Below the pieces are notes generated by a model. That model did no database searches. It had not been told where the DNA came from and saw nothing but the letters and a program-made list of their open reading frames with translations. Shown one piece after another: positions 5,408 to 60,670 of a DNA stretch of 64,000 nucleotides. Origin of the DNA: Candidatus Syntropharchaeum sp. (lineage in GTDB: Archaea; Halobacteriota; Syntropharchaeia; Syntropharchaeales; Syntropharchaeaceae). Location: positions 19,409 to 83,408 of the forward strand of contig JAOQII010000004.1 of assembly GCA_026134025.1 (NCBI GenBank). Direction: 5' to 3'. A program made the position numbers and the translations under genes. Positions within the stretch are counted from its first letter, which is position 1. Each line of letters starts with the position of its first letter.

Positions 5408-8077
5408 ATGAGCGCATTGCAGCTGAAAGAACTCGATAAGATTTTTAATCCAGGTAGTATTGCCGTGATCGGTGCAAGCAATAAGAAGGAGTCCGTTGGG
5501 TACACACTCTTCAATAACTTAATCGGTGCAGGATATGAGGGGGTTGTCTATCCCGTAAACAAAAGTGCTCCAAGTGTGCAGGGTATCCACAGCTACAGGA
5601 GTGTTGATCAAATTCCAAGAAAGATCGATCTCGCACTAATTGCCGTTCCAGCAAAGACCGTCCCTGAGGTTATGCGCGAGTGTGGTGAATCAGGTATTAG
5701 AGGGGCGATCATCATCTCTGCGGGTTTTAAAGAGATCGGAGCAAAGGGTAAAGAACTCGAAGATGAAGTCCTTGATATTGCCAGAGATTATGACATCAGG
5801 TTCATAGGTCCAAACTGTCTCGGCATCATACGACCAAAGATTCATCTCAATGCGAGCTTCGCCCCGCTCATGCCGGATGATGGAAAAATTGCATTCATAT
5901 CTCAGAGTGGAGCATTATGTGCCGCGGTTCTCGACTGGTGTCATCATCGTGGGATCGGGTTCAGCTCATTTGTATCGGTCGGTTCGATGGCAGACATCAC
6001 ATTTGGAGATCTCATCGATTATTTTGGTATGGATCCAGATACAGGCGCCATCATACTCTATATCGAAGCCCTGAAAAATGTGCGGGGTTTCATGAGTGCT
6101 GCCAGACACTTTGCAAAGACCAAGCCAATAATTGTTGTAAAATCAGGAAGGTGTGAGCGCTCTGCAGCGGTTGCCACATCACATACAGGGGCGATGGCAG
6201 GAGACGACGATCTCTATGATGCTGCATTCAAACGTGCGGGTATCGTTCGTGTTACCAGGATCGAAGAACTCTTTGACTGTGCCGAAGCTCTCGATTCCCA
6301 GACCAGACCCACAGGTAATCACCTCGCCATCGTGACAAACGCCGGTGGCCCTGGAGTTATGGCTGCAGACGAGTTACTCTCACAGGGTGGTGAGCTTGCA
6401 AAGCTTTCAAATAAGACAATTGAGGCTTTAAATGCCTGTCTTCCTCCATACTGGAGTCATGGAAACCCTGTTGATATCCTGGGTGATGCAACCCCAGAAC
6501 GGTACCGTGATGCAACGTCGATCACACTCAGAGATCCAAATGTAGACGGCGTTCTTCTGCTCCTGACCCCTGTCTCGATGTCTGATTCAGAGCTTACAGC
6601 GAGGTACATCGTGGATTTAAACCGTGATATCTCACCTGGCGATGTCTTTAAACCTCTGCTTGCCTCATGGATGGGTGAGGCGCTGGTTGAGAAGGGGCGA
6701 AAGATACTGGAGTCTGGGGGTATTCCAAGTTTTGAGACACCTGAAAGTGCGGTTACCACATACCTCCACATGTACCAGTACACAAAGAACATCGCGTCCC
6801 TCTATGAGATGCCAGAGGACATTCTGACCGGGTTTCATCCTGCAAAAGACGAGGTTAAATCGATCTTCAGGACTCTTGCAAGAGAAGGGCGGGAGCTTCT
6901 AACCGTTTACGAATCGATGAAGGTGCTTGCAGCGTATGATATACCCACAGTAAAAACCATGTTAGCGCATGATCCAGAAGAGGCTATCAAGATCGCGGAT
7001 GAGATCGGCTATCCTGTGGCAATGAAGATCGTATCCCCACAGATCACACACAAGACGGATATCGGGTGTGTTAAACTCAATATCCAGACGCAGGAAGATG
7101 TAAGAACTGCGTTTGAAGAGATTAACCGCAATGCAGGAGAACACGATCCAGATGCAACGATTCATGGTGTTGCGATCCAGCCGATGGTAACTGGTGCGGG
7201 TTACGAGGTCATTATAGGATCGAAGCGGGATAAGCTCTTTGGACCTGCCATATTGTTTGGTGCAGGCGGCACGATGGTTGAGTACATCAGGGACCAAACG
7301 ATCGGTTTCCCTCCTCTAAATCAGGCGCTGGCACACAGGATGATCGAGGATACAAGAATATCAAAGATTCTCAAAAATGGTTTTAGAGGAAGTCCCCCGG
7401 CAAATATCCGCCTGATCGAGGAGGCACTTGTCAAGATTTCATTCATGCTCATAGATTTCCCTGAGATCGAAGAGATGGACATAAACCCGATCCATGTCAA
7501 TGATACCTCCCTTCTTGCACTTGATGCGCGAATTTTGATCAACCCTGGAAAGGTTAATATCAGTGAGCCACCTGGAAGCGATCTTATCATAAGCAGGTGT
7601 CCCACCAAATACAATCAGGAATGGACTTCGCCTGCAGGAGATAAAATTTTCTTCAGAGTCGTCCGTCCCGAGGATGAACCTATGTGGCTTGAGATGGTAA
7701 GATCCTTCTCTGATGAGACGATACGCCAGAGGTTCTTTGCCCCACTCTCTGAGATCGATCACCACATGGTGGTTCGATACTGCCACATCGATTACGACCG
7801 TGAGATTGCGATTGCGGCGTTTGTTGAAGGAGAGGAAGGATACAGGATGGTTGGCGTGGGTCGCGTGGTCATACTCTCGGACGAAAATACAGGTGAGTTT
7901 GGTATGGCGATACGTGATGAATATCAGGAAAGAGGTATCGGCAATAAGTTAGTTGACATAATGATCGAGATTGCCAGGGATTTCAGGTTAAGGACGATTA
8001 TAGGCGATGTGCTTGCCGATAATTACCGTATGTTGAAGATCGCAGAGGATAAAGGATTCAAGATAAAAACGCCATGA
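5408..8077 (+). CDS. Pat-like protein: NDP-forming acyl-CoA synthetase (ADP-forming ACS alpha/beta domains) fused to a C-terminal GNAT acetyltransferase
   Basis: 889 aa. N-terminal CoA-binding Rossmann (SIAVIGASNKKESVGY), succinyl-CoA-synthetase-like and ATP-grasp domains. The C-terminal roughly 150 aa carry GNAT motif A (QERGIGNKLVD). The architecture is the same as the bacterial lysine acetyltransferase Pat/PatZ. Confidence 0.75.
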   Translation: MSALQLKELDKIFNPGSIAVIGASNKKESVGYTLFNNLIGAGYEGVVYPVNKSAPSVQGIHSYRSVDQIPRKIDLALIAVPAKTVPEVMRECGESGIRGAIIISAGFKEIGAKGKELEDEVLDIARDYDIRFIGPNCLGIIRPKIHLNASFAPLMPDDGKIAFISQSGALCAAVLDWCHHRGIGFSSFVSVGSMADITFGDLIDYFGMDPDTGAIILYIEALKNVRGFMSAARHFAKTKPIIVVKSGRCERSAAVATSHTGAMAGDDDLYDAAFKRAGIVRVTRIEELFDCAEALDSQTRPTGNHLAIVTNAGGPGVMAADELLSQGGELAKLSNKTIEALNACLPPYWSHGNPVDILGDATPERYRDATSITLRDPNVDGVLLLLTPVSMSDSELTARYIVDLNRDISPGDVFKPLLASWMGEALVEKGRKILESGGIPSFETPESAVTTYLHMYQYTKNIASLYEMPEDILTGFHPAKDEVKSIFRTLAREGRELLTVYESMKVLAAYDIPTVKTMLAHDPEEAIKIADEIGYPVAMKIVSPQITHKTDIGCVKLNIQTQEDVRTAFEEINRNAGEHDPDATIHGVAIQPMVTGAGYEVIIGSKRDKLFGPAILFGAGGTMVEYIRDQTIGFPPLNQALAHRMIEDTRISKILKNGFRGSPPANIRLIEEALVKISFMLIDFPEIEEMDINPIHVNDTSLLALDARILINPGKVNISEPPGSDLIISRCPTKYNQEWTSPAGDKIFFRVVRPEDEPMWLEMVRSFSDETIRQRFFAPLSEIDHHMVVRYCHIDYDREIAIAAFVEGEEGYRMVGVGRVVILSDENTGEFGMAIRDEYQERGIGNKLVDIMIEIARDFRLRTIIGDVLADNYRMLKIAEDKGFKIKTP

Positions 8078-27481: not shown

Positions 27482-27608
27482 TGGTATAGCGGCCATAGCG
27501 GCGGGGAAACTCCTGTACCCATCCCGAACACAGAAGATAAGCCCGCCAGCGTTCCTTGTTGTACTGAGGTGCGCGAGCCCTCGGGAAGTCTGGATCGCTG
27601 CTATACCA
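27482..27608 (+). rRNA. rrf: 5S ribosomal RNA (standalone copy)
   Basis: GGTATAGCGGC...CCCATCCCGAACACAGAAGATAAGCC...GCTGCTATACC. Terminal helix pairing (ggtatagc/gctatacc) and the conserved loop C/helix motifs of archaeal 5S. Confidence 0.8.
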
Positions 27609-28175: not shown

Positions 28176-29441
28176 ATGCTGCAGGTTAAGGGTCTGATTC
28201 TGATACTTTTTTTGATCTTTCTCTCATTCTCGCTATGTTGTATCGAAGAGGATTCAGATTTAGAGATCTCAACACCTGCTGAAACAGCAATAGAAACACC
28301 GGTTGCCACACCCCAACTCACGCCCACCCCATCGCTCAACCTGACAGCGATCGTCGATAAGGTGGAGGAGGTTCGTGGGCTGAATCTCATCGCTGATATT
28401 CCACAGCGGGAAATTAGCAGAGAGGAGCTTGAAGAACGATACAACACAACCGAAAAAGCGAGTGATGATCCTGATGATATTCTATTAAAAGCCCTCTTCA
28501 TGGTCGAATGGGACGATGACCTTGACAGGGTTGAGGCTTCGTACAAATCGAGTACGGTAATGGCGTACTATGACATCGAGAATAAAGAGATGGTGATCGT
28601 CAGCGGGTATGAGGCTGAACTTGAAAAGATCTATGCGCACGAGTACACACATGTACTCCAGGATCAGCACTTCAACCTGACAGAAATCCTCAACCAATCG
28701 ACCTTTGATGGTCGCATGGCACGAGATGCACTGGTTGAAGGGGATGCACTCCTCACCTGTGATCTCTATCAGGGTAAGACGCCATCGGGTCTCGCGATGG
28801 GGGTAAGCAAGGTCTATGAGGACGTTACACGAAGGACGCTCGAGGCATTCAGGACATTTTCGCATACCAGGGGTAAGTTCTTTGTGACCCAGCTCTATAA
28901 TGAGGGTGGTGGCTGGGAGCTTGTAAATGAAGCATATCGTAATCCACCGAGAACAACAGAGATGATAATGCACCCTGATAAATACACAAAAGGTGAAGAG
29001 GGAGTTAATATGTCAGCACCAGATCTCTTGCTGGATGGGTGGAATATGACGATCAACGATACGATGGGTGAGTTATTCATCCGTACAATGCTTGCTGATC
29101 ACATTAAATCGAGCAACGCATCCACATCAGCTTCAGGCTGGGGTGGAGACAGGTTAGTTCTCTATCAGAACGAGACTGACTACCTCTTTTGCTTCAATAT
29201 AAGCTGGGACAGCCCGATGGATGCAGATGAGTTTCTTGAAGGGTACAGAGAACTGATGAGATCTGTTAACGGGACGAAAATTGTTGATGAGAACGATTCT
29301 GTTGAGTGGGTGGTTGATGAGAATGAGTGGGTCCTGCTCCTTGAAATCAACGATTCTCTCAATCGAACGGTTCTTGCAGGATCATCCAACCCAGGAGTTC
29401 TCAATGAGCGTATGGAGGTTCTGGTGAATGGAGCTTGCTGA
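28176..29441 (+). CDS. Secreted putative zinc metallopeptidase (HExxH) with Thr/Pro-rich linker
   Basis: Signal peptide, TPVATPQLTPTPS linker, HEYTHVLQDQH zinc-binding motif, multiple N-glycosylation sequons (NxT/S). Confidence 0.5.
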   Translation: MLQVKGLILILFLIFLSFSLCCIEEDSDLEISTPAETAIETPVATPQLTPTPSLNLTAIVDKVEEVRGLNLIADIPQREISREELEERYNTTEKASDDPDDILLKALFMVEWDDDLDRVEASYKSSTVMAYYDIENKEMVIVSGYEAELEKIYAHEYTHVLQDQHFNLTEILNQSTFDGRMARDALVEGDALLTCDLYQGKTPSGLAMGVSKVYEDVTRRTLEAFRTFSHTRGKFFVTQLYNEGGGWELVNEAYRNPPRTTEMIMHPDKYTKGEEGVNMSAPDLLLDGWNMTINDTMGELFIRTMLADHIKSSNASTSASGWGGDRLVLYQNETDYLFCFNISWDSPMDADEFLEGYRELMRSVNGTKIVDENDSVEWVVDENEWVLLLEINDSLNRTVLAGSSNPGVLNERMEVLVNGAC

Positions 29442-37379: not shown

Positions 37380-38735
37380 TCATAGCGTATCCAGTGGATA
37401 GAGTTCTGTAAATACAGCCTCAGCGGCCATCGAGATCGGCTCCGCACTTGGTTCTGGCGATAGTTCTGGCTGACTTGCTGCTCGGAATGTCATGAGATCA
37501 AGTGCTGTTAGTCTGCATCTTATCGCAACTGCTACCGCATCGATCACCTTTATCATAGAACTGGTATCACTCACGATCTGCCCACCTATTACCCGCTTTG
37601 TTCGCTTATCAAAGATCAGCTTCAAGGTGAACGGCTCCTGACCCGGCATCATCAGGTGCTTGTTTATCGTTGTAAACTTACCAACAGCGATATCGATCCC
37701 TGCAGCCTTTGCTGCCTGCTCTGTCAGTCCAACACCTGCAAACGACTTGTCGAGAAGCTTTGTTGTGAAGTTGTTGAGAAGTGGTGGGAACTCGATTTTG
37801 TATCCAAGAATGTTCTTTGCGATGATCCGACCTCCGATAACGGCATTGGGTCTGATCTGTCCTGGCATAACCTCGCCTGTAACGAGGTTCTCATACTCGA
37901 TCAGGTCACCACCAGCGTATATCTCAGGATCAGAGGTCTGAAGATATTTATTCACCTTGACACCGAATCTTCCGATCTCAAGTCCACAATCTCTGGCAAG
38001 CTCAATATTCGCACGAACACCAACCGATAATATCACTGTCCCGGCATCGATTCTGGTTCCATCTGAGAGTCTGACCCCTTCTACATCTCCTGTGCCAAGA
38101 AATTCATCTGCCATGACGCTCAGCTTTAAATCGATGCCTCTGGATTCGAGGTATTCCTCGATCTCCTGTGCCATATCGTGATCAAAGCTCACTGCCAGGA
38201 TGTGATCCACGGCCTCAACGACCGTTGTCCTGTAACCTTCCCGTGCAATTAAGCTTGCCATCTCAAGCCCGATCGCGCCTGCCCCGATTACAACGACACC
38301 GCGATCTCCTTTCTTCTTCAAATGATTCAGGATATTGACCGCATCCCTGCTTGTTCTGACGGTGAATACGCCTCCAAGATCCGCGCCTGGTATCGGAGGC
38401 TTCACCGGGATGCCACCTGTTGCAAGAACCAATTTATCGTAGGGGTAACTCCCACCATCCGCGGTTGTAACAATCTTTGCCTCACGATCGACCTTGACCG
38501 CCTTGACATCAACGAGCTTCGTCCCAACCTTTGTGAAGCGGTCATCATCTTTCACGGACGCCTCAACAGTTGCATCTCCGGCCACGATGTAGGGAATTGC
38601 ACATCTCGTCAGAAAGTTCTCCTCCTCACGAATCAGCGTCAGATCCACCGAAGGGTCAAGCTTCTTGAGCATCATCGAGCAGGGTCCGCCTGTACCAGCA
38701 CACCCAATCACAACAACTTTTAGCATATCAAACAC
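37380..38735 (-). CDS. FAD-dependent pyridine nucleotide-disulfide oxidoreductase (NADH oxidase/CoA-disulfide reductase family)
   Basis: Two Rossmann GxGxxG regions (VVVIGCAGTGG; VVVIGAGAIGLE), single redox Cys in the FLTRCAIPY context typical of Nox/CoADR, C-terminal dimerisation domain. Confidence 0.75.
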   Translation of the reverse strand: MFDMLKVVVIGCAGTGGPCSMMLKKLDPSVDLTLIREEENFLTRCAIPYIVAGDATVEASVKDDDRFTKVGTKLVDVKAVKVDREAKIVTTADGGSYPYDKLVLATGGIPVKPPIPGADLGGVFTVRTSRDAVNILNHLKKKGDRGVVVIGAGAIGLEMASLIAREGYRTTVVEAVDHILAVSFDHDMAQEIEEYLESRGIDLKLSVMADEFLGTGDVEGVRLSDGTRIDAGTVILSVGVRANIELARDCGLEIGRFGVKVNKYLQTSDPEIYAGGDLIEYENLVTGEVMPGQIRPNAVIGGRIIAKNILGYKIEFPPLLNNFTTKLLDKSFAGVGLTEQAAKAAGIDIAVGKFTTINKHLMMPGQEPFTLKLIFDKRTKRVIGGQIVSDTSSMIKVIDAVAVAIRCRLTALDLMTFRAASQPELSPEPSAEPISMAAEAVFTELYPLDTL

Positions 38736-38852: not shown

Positions 38853-39968
38853 CTAAATAAGCAGGTTCATCTCCGAAGGATCTATTAAAAGGTTCAATAA
38901 CTTCAGTGCGCCTGCAGATTCCATTATGTTCTTGAGGTTTCCAGACTTCTTCCTTGATGCAAGCTTTCTTACAAGCTCGACCTTATCGTCTGCCATCTCC
39001 TTGGTCTCGATCGCACCAGCCTTCTTCGCATCCTCGATGAGCTTCTTGCCGGTCTCATTTCTGATTATGACGGTGTTCCAACCTGATTCTGCCCCGATTG
39101 ATCCAACCGAGACATCTGAAAGCTCTGCTGCAAAGTCATAGCATACTTTGCAACCCTCACGCATACAGGATTTCATTGCTGCGATCTTCTCATCGATCTG
39201 GCCGCCGTCGGTGAATATCTTGAACTTACCCTCACCGATATCGAACTTCTTGACATCCTCGATCTTTACACCAAGCTCAGCAAGCTTTGCAAGCAGGAGA
39301 TCTCGATCGAATGTCTCGGTACAGAGGAGCCCTATCACATACTTGACCTTGTCCCCGTGAACATCGAAATAGTCTGAGAGCTGGATCTTTCGCATCGCCT
39401 GTACATGGCATGGTAGACCGACCATCGCGATATTTTCATGTCCGTCAGCGATCGCGTTTGCAACACCGATGATCGTTGGACACTGCTCATAGTTTGATCC
39501 TGCACCTGCAAGAATATCTTCTTTACTGGTTGCAACAAACGGCTCGGGTTTCCATTTCTCGGTCTCTGAGTTCTTGGAGATACACGCGGCATCGATCTCA
39601 CCCTTATCCATGAGGTACGTGAGAAGCGCGGTCACAACACCGCCATCCTGCCCTTGCTCATGGATCGCAGCATCAGTTGCCTTTGCTGATATGATCTCGG
39701 TGTAATATCCAAGATCTTTATCGCTCCTGACACCGCCAAGAACCGCTTTCTCCATCTCAAGGATGGGCAGGAACGTCCTTGGACAGAAATCAAAGCACGC
39801 ACCATGGAGTTCGAAGCATTTTTCATCCGTGGTCGGAAGCTGATTCTCATAGCGGATATACTCGGTACAGAATCCACCGCAGGCACCGCAGTAACAGCAG
39901 ATCCCGGTGTATACGACCCTTGACTCCAGATCGTTTATATTTCCCTCTTCTGCAAACTTCATAATCAT
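38853..39968 (-). CDS. FrhB/FdhB/FpoF-family F420-binding iron-sulfur flavoprotein (coenzyme F420 hydrogenase/dehydrogenase beta subunit family)
   Basis: N-terminal 2x[4Fe-4S] ferredoxin motifs (CCYCGACGGFC...CFDFCP), central FrhB N/C-domains (GQDGGVVTALL...), size 371 aa. Confidence 0.7.
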   Translation of the reverse strand: MIMKFAEEGNINDLESRVVYTGICCYCGACGGFCTEYIRYENQLPTTDEKCFELHGACFDFCPRTFLPILEMEKAVLGGVRSDKDLGYYTEIISAKATDAAIHEQGQDGGVVTALLTYLMDKGEIDAACISKNSETEKWKPEPFVATSKEDILAGAGSNYEQCPTIIGVANAIADGHENIAMVGLPCHVQAMRKIQLSDYFDVHGDKVKYVIGLLCTETFDRDLLLAKLAELGVKIEDVKKFDIGEGKFKIFTDGGQIDEKIAAMKSCMREGCKVCYDFAAELSDVSVGSIGAESGWNTVIIRNETGKKLIEDAKKAGAIETKEMADDKVELVRKLASRKKSGNLKNIMESAGALKLLNLLIDPSEMNLLI

Positions 39969-43449: not shown

Positions 43450-44646
43450 GTGATTGATATAGATTTTGATCAGGGTCTACTAACGACAATACATGATATA
43501 TCCGTGAACTTTGATCAGTTGTCAGCACGTCTGCATGAGCTTACAAAGACCTATTCAACGGGTGTTATTATACCACTGCTCGAGAAGGATCTTAAAAATC
43601 CTGCGATGTCACGGATCATCGAAGGTTTGAATGAATGTACGTACCTGAATAAGGTATTTATCGCACTGGCGGCATCTGAAGATGGTTACAGCAGATCTCT
43701 TAAGACTTTTAAAGAACTCCAGATCCCAAATGAAACACTCTGGTGTAACAGCCCTGCGGTAAATGATGTCTTTGAGGATCTTGCAGTAGAAGGATTGGAT
43801 CTTACACATTATACCGGAAAAGGAATGGATGTATGGATAGCTTTTGGGATTGCGAGTCTCGAACTTGACGCATTCGTTCTTCACGATGGGGATATTCGTA
43901 CCTATTCAAAAATGATCCCAACAAAACTACTCTATCCGATCGTTGATCCAGAACTTGACTTTTTATTTACAAAAGGATATTATGCGAGGGTTGATACAGC
44001 AGATAAGATTATATATGGGAGGATATATCGCCTCTTCATCACACCAATCCTCGATGTTCTACAGGAGAAATTTGGCTACGATCTTGAGTTTTTGAGATAC
44101 CTGCAATCATTCAGGTACCTGCTCTCTGGCGAGATCGGTCTGACAAGTGAACTCGCCCTCAATTTGAGGATTGCGTGTGGGTGGGGGCTTGAGATCGGGA
44201 CCCTATCTGAGCTTATTAGAAACATTCATTACAAACGGGCATGCCAGGTCGATCTTGGGCTTTATGAGCATAAACATCAGGTGATGACGAAGGGTAAGAG
44301 TGAAGGAATTCTGAGGGTCGCGGGAGAGTGCTTTATAACGATCCTTAGAACGCTCACTGAGATGTATGCGATTGAAGTATCAGAGGAGTCATTTGCGAGT
44401 ATGAAGGTAGCCTACAGGCGTATGGCTACAGACAAGATACGTCAGTATCGGGCGATGGCGGTCTGTAATGGTCTGGACTATGATCTCAACCTCGAGGGGT
44501 ATATGGTGGAACAGTTTTCAGATGTAATAATGACTGCTGGAAGATCGTATCTAAAAAATCCGACAGCAAGGCAGATGCCTAACTGGCTACGTGCCCTATC
44601 AGCGATGCCAGATCTGAGAGAAAAGCTCCGAAAAGCGACGATATAA
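43450..44646 (+). CDS. Glucosyl-3-phosphoglycerate/mannosyl-3-phosphoglycerate synthase-like glycosyltransferase (GT81/GpgS-like)
   Basis: Resembles GpgS: GKGMDVWIAF...LHDGD (GKGEALW...IDSD in GpgS) and LSGEIGLTSEL...WGLEIGTLSEL (LSGEYAASREL...YGVEIGLLIDT). The neighbouring MpgP-family phosphatase supports this. Confidence 0.55.
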   Translation: MIDIDFDQGLLTTIHDISVNFDQLSARLHELTKTYSTGVIIPLLEKDLKNPAMSRIIEGLNECTYLNKVFIALAASEDGYSRSLKTFKELQIPNETLWCNSPAVNDVFEDLAVEGLDLTHYTGKGMDVWIAFGIASLELDAFVLHDGDIRTYSKMIPTKLLYPIVDPELDFLFTKGYYARVDTADKIIYGRIYRLFITPILDVLQEKFGYDLEFLRYLQSFRYLLSGEIGLTSELALNLRIACGWGLEIGTLSELIRNIHYKRACQVDLGLYEHKHQVMTKGKSEGILRVAGECFITILRTLTEMYAIEVSEESFASMKVAYRRMATDKIRQYRAMAVCNGLDYDLNLEGYMVEQFSDVIMTAGRSYLKNPTARQMPNWLRALSAMPDLREKLRKATI

Positions 44647-47198: not shown

Positions 47199-47483
47199 AA
47201 GGAATCCCCCGTATTATCTCTTTACTACGAGTTTCTATATATATGTATTTTCATTTGGTAATCGATTAGCGTGGAATTTGAGCGAATAGTTCTTTGGAAA
47301 GATTTTTAAATCGCAACTCATAGTGTTAATAACGATAACGACTCCTGGAGGTTCAAGAATGGGAGAGATGACAGAGGAGCAGAAACGGGTGAAGGTTCAG
47401 GCATGCAGGGATGAAGTGGGGGATAAGTTCCCGATGAAGACCTGCATCGAGCACTGCCCGCTCTATGAGATCTGTAAGGATCT

Positions 47484-55795: not shown

Positions 55796-56521
55796 GTGCT
55801 TGGGTTAAGTCTCTTCGGCGTCTTGAGACTGCTCAAAGCCCTTGAGATTCGGATAGATACACGCTTTATCTTTTCTCTCATCCCTTATATCTTTGTTGGA
55901 TCGACGCTCAGGGTGATAGAGGATGCAAATCTGATAAACCCACCCGCCTCATACCTTCTGATAACGCCCCTCATCTATTTCATCGTCTTTTTAGCGGTCT
56001 TAACGCTCCTTCTTATATCCATCAGGATTACACCTGAATTTTACGCGCTCTTCGGCTCATTCGGTATGCTGTGGACACTCTTAAATCTTGCGATCCTGAT
56101 TCTAAAGGTGGACGCGCTAAATCTCTGGGTATTGCCTGCCATAATCCTGATCGCACTCGGGGTTATCATACCACTGTATCTAATTCTTCGAGTATTGAAT
56201 GAGATTTTATTACCCAGCCCTGAGAACCTCGCGATTCTTGGATCTCATCTCCTCGATGCATCAAGCACGTTCATCGGTGTTGATCACCTCTCGTACCAGG
56301 GAAAACACGTCGTTGAACGCTTTCTGATCGAGCATACAGGAACAGCTCTCTCAATGATCCCGCTCAAACTCATCATCCTGTTACCACTCCTCTATCTACT
56401 CGATCGTGAGCTTAAAGATGAGGAGGATGCAGATCTCAAAGGTATCCTTATCCTTACGCTGATCGTCATTGGGCTTGCACCTGCTATTAGAAATACGACA
56501 AGGATGCTTTTTGGGATTTGA
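55796..56521 (+). CDS. DUF63-family archaeal integral membrane protein
   Basis: 241 aa, 6-7 TM, conserved LLDASSTFIGVDH region typical of DUF63. Confidence 0.5.
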   Translation: MLGLSLFGVLRLLKALEIRIDTRFIFSLIPYIFVGSTLRVIEDANLINPPASYLLITPLIYFIVFLAVLTLLLISIRITPEFYALFGSFGMLWTLLNLAILILKVDALNLWVLPAIILIALGVIIPLYLILRVLNEILLPSPENLAILGSHLLDASSTFIGVDHLSYQGKHVVERFLIEHTGTALSMIPLKLIILLPLLYLLDRELKDEEDADLKGILILTLIVIGLAPAIRNTTRMLFGI

Positions 56522-56603: not shown

Positions 56604-56972
56604 ATGATGTCAGGTTATATGGAAATCGCCTTGATTACGATTGTTGGAATACTGTTTCCTGTTATTGCATTTGTAGCTTCCTGGCTTTTGAGACCATCTC
56701 ATCCGAATGATGAAAAATTCACGATATATGAATGTGGTGAGATAGCCCTGGGCGGTGATTCACGTAAGAATATTGGTATCCAGTTCTATCTCTTCGCTTT
56801 GATCTTCGTCATCTTTGATGTTGAAGCGATATTTTTATACCCCTGGGCGGTATCGTTTGGAGGATTGGGTGCCTTTGCATTCATCGAGATGATGATTTTC
56901 ATCGGCGTTCTTGTCGCGGGCTATGCATATGCATGGAAGATAGGCGCTCTTGAATGGGTTGGTGATGCGTGA
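56604..56972 (+). CDS. fpoA: F420H2 dehydrogenase/complex I subunit A (NuoA-type)
   Basis: 3-TM protein with [13 protein letters not shown] and [13 protein letters not shown] motifs. Confidence 0.85.
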
Positions 56973-58087
56973 TGGATCGAGAGTATGTCACGGATAAGAT
57001 CAGAAGAAGTATGGGAAGACGCATTCTGACCGATGAAGAGGTTTCCGGATGGTGGATAATTGGTGGGATCGTAACCTTCGGTCTTCTTTTCCTTCTGCTT
57101 TTTTTAAAGTTGATTCACCGGAGAAATGAGCATTTTAAACGACAGAAAATGCTTGAAGAGCAGATCATAGAACTCGTGGGTATCGATCTGAAAGATAAAA
57201 AGATGCTCGCCGATCTCAAGGCGATCCATAACGAAGGCTACGAGTCGGGTGAGTTTAAAGATCTATCATTCTTAAGAATTATCCCTGCAATCATTACACT
57301 TGGACTCTACATCGAATGGAGACTCACAAAAGATCTCATGATCCATGCAGAGAGACAGCGGCGATTCTTCTCATGCTATCTCGGACGAGAACTTGAGGAT
57401 ACAACTCCCCAGCGACCCACAGGGAAATATCTCGGACTGGGTGTTGTGACACTCGGGTTATTTGGGATCTACTGGACGAACCTTATCATAAAAGACTCGA
57501 ATGAGCACTTTAAAGATCAGTGGAAGCTTGAAGATCTACTGCCAGAAGCGGGCATGGAGATCGATGAGGGGGTAGATCCAGACTTCTATAAGAACATAAT
57601 CTTAACAACGGTTGATAAGTTCCTAAACTGGGGCAGGACGTGCTCCGTATGGCCAATGGCGTTCGGTACTGCCTGTTGCGCGATGGAGATGATGGCGACA
57701 TTTGCCTCACGTAATGATATGGATCGATACGGCATGATCTTTCGTAACTCACCCAGACAGGCAGATGTTCTCATTGTGGCAGGCACGATCACGCAGAAGA
57801 TGGCACCACGACTCAGGAGGCTCTATGATCAGATGGCTGAGCCGAAGTACGTCATAGCGATGGGCGCGTGTGCAATGACAGGCGGTCCCTTTGTCAACTC
57901 ATACAGCGTACTCAAAGGCGTGGATAAAGTCATACCTGTGGATATATATCTTCCGGGCTGCCCGCCGAGGCCAGAGGCACTCCTCAATGCGTTCCTCCAG
58001 CTTCAGGAACGGATGAAAGAGGAGCGCACAGTAACAAAGAAATTTGAAAGATGGATTTTAAAAGACCGTAAGGAGGTTGTAACATGA
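56969..58087 (+). CDS. fpoB: F420H2 dehydrogenase/complex I subunit B (NuoB-type, N2 cluster) with an unusual 200-aa membrane-associated N-terminal extension
   Basis: C-terminal 170 aa are canonical NuoB ([26 protein letters not shown]). The N-terminal part has a TM helix ([19 protein letters not shown]) and a second hydrophobic segment. Confidence 0.85.
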
Positions 58088-58542
58088 GTGAAGAACTTCT
58101 CAATGAGTTTCCTCATGTGGTAAAATCCGAAGATGGACTTCTACTTGTCGAGGCTGATCAGATCATCGAGGTTTGCACATTCCTCAAAAATAAGGGCTTT
58201 GACTTCCTTGAGGCGATATCAGGCGCTGACTTTGAGGAATATCTGGAAGTAATATATAATATTGCGTCTTACTCGAAGCCAGATCGGGTAATGCTCACCG
58301 TGAGAATCTCGAAGGATAATCCGATACTGCCAACTGTCACCTCACTCTGGCATGGTGCGAACTGGCATGAACGGGAAGCGTACGATATGTTCGGGATAAA
58401 GTTCAAAGGACATCCCAAACTCGCAAGAATCCTTTTGCCAGATAGCTGGGATGGATATCCACTCTTGAAGAGCTATCCACTGGATAAGGAGCAGAAGGTA
58501 GAGCTTGAGGATGAGACGGGGGTGGAGATATGTCAGATATAA
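58084..58542 (+). CDS. fpoC: F420H2 dehydrogenase/complex I subunit C (NuoC-type, 30 kDa)
   Basis: [23 protein letters not shown] signature. Confidence 0.85.
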
Positions 58543-59636
58543 GAAAGGTTGTAGAGATCCCGATCAATATGGGTCCTGCTCATCCTGCAACACACGGTGT
58601 TCTGAGGCTCAGGCTCAAGCTTGAAGGTGAGATCGTTAGAGAGGTCGATCCAGTCATCGGGTACCTCCACCGCGGCATTGAGAAACTTGCAGAATCACTG
58701 ACTTACCCACAGTTCATCCCATACACAGACCGGCTCGATTATGCCGGAAGCATGCTCAACAACCTCGGTTATGTTAAAGCAGTAGAGGAACTTCTTGGAA
58801 TTGAGGTCCCAGAGCGAGCTGAGTACCTCAGGGTGATGACGACAGAGCTTTCAAGGATTGCGTCTCACCTTGTATGGCTCTCTGCATGGGGGCTTGATCT
58901 TGGCGCGATGGCACCGTTTTTCTACTGTTTCAGGGAGCGAGAAGAGATCTTAAATATCTTTGAGATGCTCTGCGGTGCGAGGATAACATTTTCATACATG
59001 CGAATCGGCGGTGTCTCAAAAGATATGCCAGAAGGCTTTGCCGACCGCCTGCAGAACTTCCTCGATATATTTCCTGAGAAGCTGAGTGAGTATGAGACGA
59101 TCTTGACCGAGAATGAAATCTTTCTGGCAAGAACGGTCGGAGTCGGGATACTACCAAAAGAAGATGCGATCGATTATGGTGTGACAGGACCTATTGCCAG
59201 AGCATCAGGACTTGAATACGATACGCGAAAGATTGAGCCCTACTCGATCTATGATCGGTTCGATTTCAGGATTCCTGTGGAGCATGGATGTGACGTCTAT
59301 TCCCGTTACCTCATTCGAGTTGAGGAGATGAAACAGAGTATGAAGATCGTTCAGCAGGCACTTGACAAGATTCCAGAAGGAGAAATCATGGCAAAGGTTC
59401 CGAAGAAGATAAAGCCAGAACCTGGAAGGGTTTATTCTCGTGTTGAAGGTTCTAAAGGTGAGCTTGGCTTTTTAATAATAAGTGATGGATCTGATAAGCC
59501 GTATCGGCTCAGGATTCGCTCACCTGCATACAGCAACGTCGCTGCACTGCCTGTCATGTGTGAGAATGCAAAGATTGCGGATGTTGTTGCGACCGTGGGT
59601 AGCCTGGATATATGTCTTGGGGAGATGGATAGATGA
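58530..59636 (+). CDS. fpoD: F420H2 dehydrogenase/complex I subunit D (NuoD-type, 49 kDa)
   Basis: NMGPAHPATHGVLRL N-terminus, RIGGV and C-terminal conserved regions. 368 aa. Confidence 0.9.
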   Translation: MSDIRKVVEIPINMGPAHPATHGVLRLRLKLEGEIVREVDPVIGYLHRGIEKLAESLTYPQFIPYTDRLDYAGSMLNNLGYVKAVEELLGIEVPERAEYLRVMTTELSRIASHLVWLSAWGLDLGAMAPFFYCFREREEILNIFEMLCGARITFSYMRIGGVSKDMPEGFADRLQNFLDIFPEKLSEYETILTENEIFLARTVGVGILPKEDAIDYGVTGPIARASGLEYDTRKIEPYSIYDRFDFRIPVEHGCDVYSRYLIRVEEMKQSMKIVQQALDKIPEGEIMAKVPKKIKPEPGRVYSRVEGSKGELGFLIISDGSDKPYRLRIRSPAYSNVAALPVMCENAKIADVVATVGSLDICLGEMDR

Positions 59637-60670
59637 CAACAACGATGTATGATTCACTTGTTGGAATCCTGAGTCAGCTGGGAGTCTATCAGATACTTTC
59701 AGGTTTTTTACCAGAGATTGTGATCAGGATAATGCTGGTACTTGCTATCGCGGGGGTTGTCGCGACCGTAGCATCGTTGATACTTGCATACCTGACATGG
59801 CTTGAACGGAAAGTCCTGAGTGATATTCAGCAGCGAATAGGGCCAATGCGAACAGGGCCACATGGACTCCTGCAGCCGATCGCGGATGGTATCAAGCTGC
59901 TCGTCAAGGAGGATGTTCACCCAAAGACGATCGATAAATGGGTCTTCCTGCTTGCACCAATCGTGATGTTTGTACCTGTCGTGGTCGTACTTGCTGTAAT
60001 TCCCTTCGGAAAAACCCTTGTTATGACAGATCTCAGCGTTGGGATCGTCTTCCTGCTTGCAGTCTCATCGCTTCCGACGCTTGGTATTATTATGGCTTCA
60101 TGGGCGCAGAATAACAAGTATGCGGTTCTTGCAGGGCTTAGAAGGGCGGCAGAGATCATAAGCTATGAAATATCGATGGTTCTCGCTGCCATAGGGGTAG
60201 TATTACTTGCAGGAACATTGAGTTTACCTGGAATCGTTGAAGCACAGACCGGATTACCTTATATTATTCTCCAGCCGCTTGGATTTCTGATATTCTTCAT
60301 CGGACTCCTTGCAGACCTTGGGAGAATTCCTTTCGACTTCCAGGAGTCTGAATCAGAACTTGTTGCAGGGTACACAACCGAATATTCAGGGATGAAATTC
60401 TCCTTCTTCTTCTTAGCTGAGTACCTTGAACTCTTTGTTGCAGGGGGAATTCTCACCACGCTATATCTTGGAGGCTGGAATGGGCCGTTCCTGCCGTCAT
60501 GGCTCTGGTTTGCTATAAAGACCTTTATCGTGATCTGGGTGATCCTCTGGATTCGTGCAACCTTACCAAGGGTCAGGATTGATCAGTTACTTGATATTGG
60601 ATGGAAGTGGCTCCTACCGCTTGCACTTCTGAATATTGCAATAACTGGCGGTGTGCTGGCGGTGATGTGA
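59633..60670 (+). CDS. fpoH: F420H2 dehydrogenase/complex I subunit H (NuoH-type membrane subunit)
   Basis: 8-TM protein with WLERKVLSDIQQRIGPMRTGPHGLLQPIADGIKL and FDFQESESELVAGY(T)TEYSG motifs. Confidence 0.9.
   Translation: MTTTMYDSLVGILSQLGVYQILSGFLPEIVIRIMLVLAIAGVVATVASLILAYLTWLERKVLSDIQQRIGPMRTGPHGLLQPIADGIKLLVKEDVHPKTIDKWVFLLAPIVMFVPVVVVLAVIPFGKTLVMTDLSVGIVFLLAVSSLPTLGIIMASWAQNNKYAVLAGLRRAAEIISYEISMVLAAIGVVLLAGTLSLPGIVEAQTGLPYIILQPLGFLIFFIGLLADLGRIPFDFQESESELVAGYTTEYSGMKFSFFFLAEYLELFVAGGILTTLYLGGWNGPFLPSWLWFAIKTFIVIWVILWIRATLPRVRIDQLLDIGWKWLLPLALLNIAITGGVLAVM

Follow-up and report, generated by a model that had tools for sequence, protein, structure and literature searches.

Canonical NuoB (Nqo6, NDUFS7 or PSST, NdhK) is a very conserved protein that normally belongs to the peripheral arm of complex I and its relatives. 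Gene fusions within the quinone module (Q-module) of nuo operons are known, as in E. coli NuoCD and the NuoBCD fusions (NF009808), and these join core subunits of the complex to one another. Small accessory membrane subunits, such as cyanobacterial NdhL and mitochondrial NDUFA13 and NDUFA1, sit at the heel of complex-I-type enzymes, beside ND1 and ND3. The archaeal relatives Fpo (the F420H2:methanophenazine oxidoreductase of Methanosarcina) and Fqo (of Archaeoglobus and ANME-1) are without NuoEFG and show the gene order A-B-C-D-H. Here we describe a nuo locus in a 64,000-nucleotide stretch (the window) of contig JAOQII010000004.1 from Candidatus Syntropharchaeum sp. (assembly GCA_026134025.1). 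It shares with canonical NuoB the core, the CC...C...C ligands and the nuoA-B-C-D-H operon, and differs from it in a hydrophobic N-terminal module of ~195 residues, by which a peripheral subunit would become membrane-embedded. The module carries the same three repeats and all the invariant residues of stand-alone proteins of the DUF4234 (PF14018)/DUF6693 (PF20403) family. As in NuoCD and NuoBCD, this is a fusion of a Q-module gene within a nuo operon, but here a core subunit is joined to an unrelated membrane protein from outside the complex. The gene and its two principal parts, with the junction between them, are as follows.

56969..58087, + strand: fused gene, DUF4234/DUF6693-family membrane module plus NuoB; 372 aa (from GTG) or 371 aa (from ATG 56972)
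57536..57589, + strand: acidic linker and fusion junction, residues 190-207, including Met196; low predicted local distance difference test score (pLDDT)
57590..58036, + strand: NuoB (Nqo6/PSST) core, residues 208-356; PF01058, NCBIfam NuoB models, N2 cysteines

The first-pass annotation of this stretch had placed a canonical NuoB core with the N2-cluster cysteines in the C-terminal half of the open reading frame, and Pfam, NCBIfam and the four cysteines agree on this. PF01058 matches residues 236-344 (E = 4e-32, 111 bits, cut-off 27), and the NCBIfam NuoB models score 240-249 bits over residues ~206-354, including TIGR01957 (240.9 bits, cut-off 142.7) and NF005012 (248.6 bits, cut-off 116); NF009808 (NuoB/C/D) matches the core with E = 4e-60, below its cut-off. 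The N2-cluster cysteines are all present and align with those of NDUFS7: C236 and C237 in CCAMEMM (57674-57679), C301 in GACAM (57869-57871) and C331 in GCPP (57959-57961). All 43 solved homologues among PDB sequences, including NDUFS7, Nqo6, NuoB, NdhK, MbhJ and HycG, match only from query residue 199 on, residues 17-161 of T. thermophilus Nqo6 aligning to query residues 208-352. The core (~208-356) is 49-56% identical to ordinary NuoB, or 51-67% over the region aligned by BLASTP, and the other sequence homologues among the best 120 measure 204-268 aa and have no membrane module. The protein has the position expected of a NuoB, flanked by nuoA and nuoC/D in an operon of the complex I type, and departs from the peripheral type without membrane segments by three hydrophobic segments in residues 24-175. 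The S. butanivorans orthologue is assigned by PSORTb to 'CytoplasmicMembrane' in the supplement of PMC11543930. From its sequence, the C-terminal half reads as an intact N2 [4Fe-4S] cluster subunit and is predicted to be a functional NuoB.

Two further kinds of NuoB variant were met along the way. The metagenomic homologues P0005 (346 aa) and P0006 (246 aa) carry an internal duplication of a core stretch, which is probably an assembly or gene-call artefact and is unrelated to the DUF4234 extension, and the close homologues P0007, P0008 and P0011 have a His/Gly-rich C-terminal tail of ~70 residues.

The extension has its relatives elsewhere. PF14018 (DUF4234) matches residues 149-183 at 34.0-37.1 bits (cut-off 25.3, E = 3e-8 to 3.5e-9), a match that covers model positions 1-35 of 70 only. 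An exhaustive phmmer search of the extension against 1.84 billion cluster representatives (E <= 1e-3) returned 230 clusters at 50% identity (best E = 1.6e-22, query 10-190), nearly all of them proteins of 170-340 aa, with matches that span query residues ~27-192 and run to the C-termini of the stand-alone proteins. A profile search returned >1000 clusters at 90% identity, mostly of 177-214 aa and with PF14018 and/or PF20403 (DUF6693). The extension aligns with this stand-alone family over its full length and colinearly, at 23-41% identity, and the family ends where the linker starts. Every family-invariant residue, as read from our alignments A2, A4 and A5, is kept: R52, N53, H55, F56, D122, H126, T161, G163, Y168, W169, N178, H180 and E188. 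The extension is accordingly an entire stand-alone membrane protein, attached by the acidic linker to an almost complete NuoB, and the early suggestion that an extra membrane protein had been fused to NuoB is borne out by this end-to-end alignment.

Unlike in the stand-alone members, the module here makes up the N-terminal half of a 371-aa NuoB, and no fusion to NuoB occurs among the other family members listed. Stand-alone members, 170-340 aa long, did not lie beside nuo genes in any of the contexts read. A few relatives are fused otherwise, to an FHA domain or zinc ribbon at the C-terminus or to a zinc ribbon or GYF domain at the N-terminus, and to judge by these fusions the family behaves as a reusable membrane module. 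The family profile found no match among PDB sequences even at E = 10, and no likeness of the family or of its model to any solved structure, characterised protein or named family was found; in the literature searched, no paper text discusses DUF4234, DUF6693 or a membrane-anchored NuoB. One name attached to the family appears misleading: the JGI label 'NADH:ubiquinone oxidoreductase subunit 5 (L)/MnhA' on the 195-aa proteins P0331, P0344 and P0385 looks like a spurious COG assignment, unsupported by NCBIfam, by the PDB-sequence profile search or by a Pfam scan of the family (P0331 and P0344 have no precomputed Pfam domain).

The fused architecture is present in four Candidatus Syntrophoarchaeum lineages, always directly 3' of nuoA: that of the window, Ca. 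Syntrophoarchaeum sp. GoM_oil (loci L084/L085), Ca. S. butanivorans (L004, L086, L095) and a fourth lineage (L002/L003). The GoM_oil protein (P0003, 371 aa, named NADH ubiquinone oxidoreductase chain B) is 91% identical to that of the window; P0004 (371 aa, 79% identical) has the same fused architecture, and P0001 is a fused protein of 76% identity that is cut short by the end of its contig. Among species-representative genomes, Ca. S. butanivorans BOX1 proved to carry the fusion (L004, 79% identical), and a metagenome scan added one more, truncated copy (L095). Amino-acid identity between lineages is 73-91%, too divergent for all the public assemblies to go back to a single faulty reference. 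All 204 codons of the extension align across the four lineages with zero indels, and its ratio of nonsynonymous to synonymous substitution rates (dN/dS, Nei-Gojobori) is 0.096 against GoM_oil, at an unsaturated dS of 0.65, and 0.06-0.09 against the other lineages, compared with ~0.05 for the NuoB core. A stop-free run of 196 codons has a chance of ~2e-5 at the base composition of the window (GC 0.458). The extension is genuine coding sequence under purifying selection. This is what the first-pass annotation had supposed when it preferred a genuine extension to a mis-called start; the check that it proposed, conservation of the region as coding among relatives, gives a dN/dS of ~0.06-0.10 with the frame kept in all four lineages, and the relatives with an intergenic gap and an unconserved frame that would have spoken against it did not turn up. 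Outside the Syntrophoarchaeum clade, no fusion to NuoB was seen in sequence, profile, genome or metagenome searches.

The gene is a single open reading frame on the + strand, 372 aa from GTG 56969 to the stop at 58085-58087, and lies in a five-gene cluster, nuoA-B-C-D-H, at 56604-60670. The other members of the cluster, and the putative ribosome-binding site of the fused gene, are the following.

56604..56972, + strand: nuoA (ND3-like, 122 aa); PF00507, E = 1.4e-35
56961..56966, + strand: Shine-Dalgarno-like GGTGAT, 5 nt upstream of ATG 56972 (direct reading)
58084-58542, + strand: nuoC; PF00329
58530-59636, + strand: nuoD; PF00346
59633-60670, + strand: nuoH; PF00146

The TGA of nuoA occupies 56970-56972. 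The 4-nt overlap between this stop and the start of the fused gene, noted at first pass, is confirmed for GTG 56969, but ATG 56972, which overlaps the nuoA stop by 1 nt (TGATG) and gives 371 aa, is the likelier start. Six orthologous loci keep the ATG, the TGATG overlap and a GGTGAT or GGTGGT at equal spacing, whereas the codon before the ATG is GTG or TTG among orthologues. On this pattern of conservation, ATG 56972 is likely the true start of the fused gene, which would then be one residue shorter than from GTG. Rfam and transfer RNA scans found no match in or near the fused gene.

Downstream of nuoH, the nuo cluster contains none of the nuoI-N genes; the genes 3' of it are unrelated (a phosphopantothenate synthetase, PPS_PS; an archaeosine TGT_C2/PUA protein; NAC). 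GoM_oil and S. butanivorans have the same five nuo genes with other flanks, in the order nuoA-B-C-D-H (L004, L084, L085). The flanks differ on both sides between the window, GoM_oil, S. butanivorans and the L002 lineage, and the five-gene block seems mobile as a unit. A DUF63 membrane protein (PF01889, E = 4e-73; 55796-56521, +) is encoded directly upstream of nuoA in the window and in none of the other lineages examined.

Candidatus Syntrophoarchaeum is an anaerobic butane oxidiser. The closest proteins to the fused one are those of this genus (91% to sp. GoM_oil, 79% to S. butanivorans), and the nearest cores beyond the fused clade are Nuo proteins from metagenome-assembled genomes of Thermoplasmatales and from Acidobacteria, Planctomycetota and Bacteroidota (51-67% identity). 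Like Fpo and Fqo, the locus is archaeal, without NuoEFG and ordered A-B-C-D-H; unlike them, it has Nuo-type proteins as the nearest relatives of its core and no fpoF or fpoO gene adjoining the cluster. Neither FpoB or FqoB proteins as closest relatives nor an associated FpoF/FqoF input subunit, the marks of an Fpo or Fqo, were found. The supplementary material of PMC11543930 assigns SBU_000563-567 of S. butanivorans to nuoH, D, C, B and A and gives SBU_000566 the domains 'PF14018;PF01058'; it puts the other subunits, of which nuoI, J, K and N are named, at a second locus from SBU_000874, and has a separate Fqo cluster (fqoJ = SBU_000209). The same source reports these Nuo protein families in 3 of the 7 Syntropharchaeia genomes that encode ACR and in 0 of the 54 that encode MCR, and models the enzyme as a NuoEFG-less, ion-translocating ferredoxin:menaquinone oxidoreductase (PMC11543930). 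The host cluster is a Nuo-like complex of an anaerobic alkane oxidiser, neither Fpo nor Fqo. The labels 'FpoB' and 'methanogen Fpo complex' given at first pass are therefore wrong, as the nearest cores are Nuo-type and Fqo is assigned to a distinct locus in the tables of PMC11543930.

Elsewhere in the window, an FrhB/FdhB-like protein (371 aa, 38853-39968, -; PF04422 and PF04432) with an N-terminal extension of ~90 aa adjoins a pyridine-nucleotide-disulfide oxidoreductase (451 aa, 37380-38735, -). The two may form an F420-linked redox pair, and lie 17 kb away from the nuo genes on the other strand.

With regard to its architecture, the module consists of three homologous repeats (hhalign; R1 ~28-70, R2 ~99-138, R3 ~151-191), with probabilities of 97% for R1-R3 (E = 3e-11), 86% for R2-R3 and 73% for R1-R2. 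Each is made of a hydrophobic segment of ~20 residues followed by a polar helix with a (R/K/D)-x-(N/x)-x-H motif. Hydrophobic peaks by Kyte-Doolittle lie at residues 24-52, 99-117 and 155-175. The first-pass annotation had at least one strong transmembrane (TM) helix and a second hydrophobic stretch; the hydrophobicity stands, with three segments rather than one or two, and it is the membrane-spanning helices that we question. The elements of the module, with the evidence from hydrophobicity, alignments and the AlphaFold2 (AF2) model, are listed here in order.

56978..57031, + strand: N-terminal amphipathic helix, residues 4-21, family motif R-x-x-T-D; AF2 helix, pLDDT ~88
57047..57115, + strand: hydrophobic segment 1, residues 27-49, central G38; Kyte-Doolittle 2.47, AF2 break at 36-38
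57119..57148, + strand: motif helix 1, residues 51-60, invariant R52, N53, H55 and F56; alignments A2, A4, A5
57263..57322, + strand: hydrophobic segment 2, residues 99-118, P106 near its centre; Kyte-Doolittle 1.51, AF2 break at 104-107
57323..57367, + strand: motif helix 2, residues 119-133, invariant D122 and H126; alignments, parallel-register covariation
57425..57493, + strand: hydrophobic segment 3, residues 153-175, central invariant T161 and G163; PF14018, AF2 break at 161-163
57494..57535, + strand: motif helix 3, residues 176-189, invariant N178, H180 and E188; alignments

G38 is conserved in at least 90% of family sequences and P106 is invariant in alignment A4; segment 3 (Kyte-Doolittle peak 1.64) is the region of the DUF4234 Pfam model, and stand-alone members end shortly after motif helix 3. 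The extension is modelled by AF2 with a pLDDT of 84-93 and with helix breaks at 36-38, 104-107 and 161-163. In local tests any NuoB-only sequence broke the module alignment, and a joint alignment of fused, stand-alone and NuoB-only proteins (A3) was discarded, MAFFT having forced the stand-alone proteins onto the NuoB core; the full-length AF2 model was built without NuoB-only rows.

Mean-field direct coupling analysis (DCA) was run on 271 sequences (effective number, Meff, 166), with bootstraps and a column-shuffle null whose maximum was 1.24-1.49. The pairs Q59-Q130, Q130-Q184, R52-D122 and L123-S177 rise above the null and withstand bootstrapping, and H55-H126 also covaries; the four pairs would align motif helices 1-3 next to one another in parallel register. 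Likewise above the null, L48/R51-I174 and D22-R51 would bring the flanks of segment 1 together, and the N-terminal helix covaries antiparallel with residues 50-65 (D22-R51 score 1.66, in 10 of 10 bootstraps).

On the strength of the central Gly/Pro breakers, the DCA covariation, the AF2 breaks and the parity of fused domains, we consider it probable that the three segments are re-entrant hairpins dipping into the membrane under a cytoplasmic helix bundle, rather than classic TM helices. Parity enters in that motif 1 is preceded by one hydrophobic stretch in some forms of the family and by two in others, and only repeat ends that are all cytoplasmic keep the zinc-ribbon, GYF, FHA and NuoB domains cytoplasmic. 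The signs that both flanks of a segment lie on the same side, as in the monotopic class, namely D22-R51, the parallel motif helices, the Gly/Pro residues, the AF2 breaks and the parity of fused domains, are indirect.

A classic three-TM topology is the strongest competitor, although on balance unlikely: the N-terminus would be outside, with TM1 running out-to-in, TM2 in-to-out and TM3 out-to-in. The segments, at 20-23 residues, are hydrophobic enough for TM helices, the strongest positive cluster follows segment 1, the C-terminus must be cytoplasmic, and our first AF2 model drew segment 1 as a single unbroken helix. Such a topology would, however, place homologous and equally conserved motifs on opposite sides of the membrane, make R52-D122, Q59-Q130 and D22-R51 impossible as contacts, and leave the (near-)invariant G38, P106 and G163 at the centres of its helices; nor could the variants with a zinc ribbon, GYF or FHA domain, or with one or two stretches before motif 1, all keep these domains in the cytoplasm. 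Counts of positive-inside charges do not discriminate between the two topologies, and under both of them the NuoB core is cytoplasmic.

As to function, the overall account that we favour, with some reserve, is that of a functional NuoB to which a stand-alone module has been fused as a built-in accessory subunit or anchor of the Nuo-like complex. A complete family member of ~195 residues would have been fused to the N-terminus of NuoB in the ancestor of this genus-level clade, the NuoB part being the N2 subunit of a NuoEFG-less, 11-subunit-type complex-I-like enzyme. A single polypeptide would be made, translationally coupled to nuoA and starting at ATG 56972. Its three polar helices may pack in parallel as a cytoplasmic bundle, and its three hydrophobic segments may dip as re-entrant hairpins into the cytoplasmic leaflet, with both ends of the module cytoplasmic; the acidic linker of ~18 residues (190-207), which follows the ~14-residue motif helix 3, would let the core dock on NuoD, NuoH and NuoA. 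The module could thereby tether the quinone module to the membrane beside NuoA and NuoH and aid assembly or stability. In solved structures of complex I, NuoB has its N-terminus at the surface of the membrane, adjoining ND1 and ND3, and for this reason we would place the module at the heel, near the quinone entry. In proposed position and role, that of stabilising the junction of peripheral and membrane arms, it may be likened to NdhL and to NDUFA13 and NDUFA1.

Several points weigh against this account. The NuoB core is poorly modelled in the full-length AF2 model, so that the placement of module against core is not fixed. The alignment behind the DCA is small, only ~10 pairs exceed a lenient null, and the parallel pairs join repeat-equivalent positions, which may covary without contact. 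In seven genomic contexts, stand-alone genes had no nuo, fpo or respiratory neighbours, so that nothing in these contexts independently ties the family to complex I in function. We infer the role of anchor or stabiliser from the architecture, and the His, Asn, Asp and Arg residues are so strictly conserved as to suggest more than passive anchoring.

This last point leads to a second reading, which we regard as doubtful: that the module has a specific activity, its invariant layer binding a partner protein, a metal or the head-group of a lipid or quinone. R52/N53/H55, D122/H126 and N178/H180/E188 would form a pseudo-threefold layer at the membrane interface, and the module might modulate how quinone reaches the Nuo-like complex, or offer it a docking site for an electron donor or acceptor. 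Hundreds of divergent stand-alone proteins share these polar residues without variation and the fusion keeps them, the pairs H55-H126 and R52-D122 covary, and the dN/dS of the extension is little higher than that of the catalytic core. There is also a hint of lipid or glycan chemistry in the recurrent glycosyltransferase and aminotransferase neighbours of the stand-alone genes. Five syntenic stand-alone contigs, one of them from Bathyarchaeota, share divergent GT4/GT2/GT2 genes upstream and a class-I/II aminotransferase gene (Aminotran_1_2) downstream, which often overlaps the end of the stand-alone gene; a lipid-, glycan- or cobamide-linked role of the family could be imagined from this neighbourhood. 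The contigs, however, are closely syntenic and may all come from one lineage, no ligand can be named and no characterised relative came to light, and the fusions to unrelated soluble domains (FHA, zinc ribbon, GYF) fit a generic anchor or scaffold equally well. Across the stand-alone loci L087-L094 (L091 being from a Bathyarchaeota genome), a radical-SAM/SPASM gene and DUF362 also lie upstream of the stand-alone genes, and some stand-alone loci have CobY-like and CobS genes further downstream.

A third possibility is that the fusion exists at the level of the gene only, and that cleavage in the acidic linker (~190-207) or an internal start yields a separate membrane protein and a NuoB of normal size, the fusion then serving co-expression only. 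Although the linker is acidic, of low pLDDT and maybe flexible, and codon 196 is an ATG in three lineages of the four, we judge this improbable: Ca. S. butanivorans has Ile in place of Met196, the internal Met that the first-pass annotation had named as a possible start, the lineages share no start codon anywhere from codon 165 to codon 215, and no Shine-Dalgarno-like sequence precedes ATG196, so that internal initiation there appears unlikely. Moreover, the conserved linker pattern LPEAG-x-E-x-DE points to a constrained tether rather than a disposable spacer, and no stop codon or frameshift parts the module from the core in any lineage.

The weakest explanation, a start mis-called upstream of a normal NuoB or a chimeric or frameshifted assembly joining two genes, can appeal only to the general frequency with which long N-terminal extensions turn out to be errors of annotation, and is effectively refuted by identical architecture in independent assemblies (NCBI, JGI, ENA and Logan samples), by in-frame conservation and purifying selection over the whole extension, by its match to a Pfam domain above the gathering score and to an entire protein family, by the lack of a nuoA-nuoB intergenic gap in any lineage, and by the non-conserved internal start.

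The rest of the window holds a few features unconnected with the nuo cluster. An 889-aa protein (5408-8077, +) combines CoA-binding, succinyl-CoA-ligase-like, ATP-grasp_5 and C-terminal GNAT acetyltransferase domains, an arrangement that is characteristic of Pat-type protein lysine acetyltransferases and is met here in an archaeon. Two proteins, of 421 aa (28176-29441, +) and 398 aa (43450-44646, +), have no Pfam match at E <= 1e-5. A stand-alone 5S ribosomal RNA gene (27485-27606, +; Rfam, 98.8 bits) is accompanied by no other ribosomal RNA match in the window, and transfer RNA genes for Ser, Cys and Leu are found at 47483, 53003 and 62254, respectively.

What was already known of the fusion consists of the public protein sequences and, for the S. 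butanivorans orthologue, of the pair of Pfam domains given in one supplementary table (PMC11543930); in the literature searched, no text describes or interprets the fusion, the family or the family's architecture. No solved homologue of the very conserved NuoB, nor any other among the best 120, has a comparable N-terminal extension. The finding indicates that the Q-module of an archaeal complex I relative can gain a covalently attached membrane part, and it sets the Nuo-like complex of Syntrophoarchaeum structurally apart from Fqo and Fpo. In anaerobic butane oxidation, this complex is the proposed coupling site between the oxidation of ferredoxin and the reduction of menaquinone (PMC11543930). 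Its practical reach is one genus-level clade, for a function that we infer. For the widespread DUF4234/DUF6693 family, the fusion supplies the first concrete physical partner of a member, along with a testable structural model of three repeats, re-entrant hairpins, a cytoplasmic bundle and a His-rich layer. More tentatively, the module may represent a new type of accessory subunit, a pseudo-threefold monotopic module of three hairpins by the quinone entry at NuoH/NuoA, binding lipid, quinone or metal or docking a partner. If that were true, the fusion would be the first 'Rosetta-stone' functional clue for DUF4234/DUF6693, and it would represent a lineage-specific adaptation of the ferredoxin:menaquinone Nuo-like complex in alkane-oxidising archaea.

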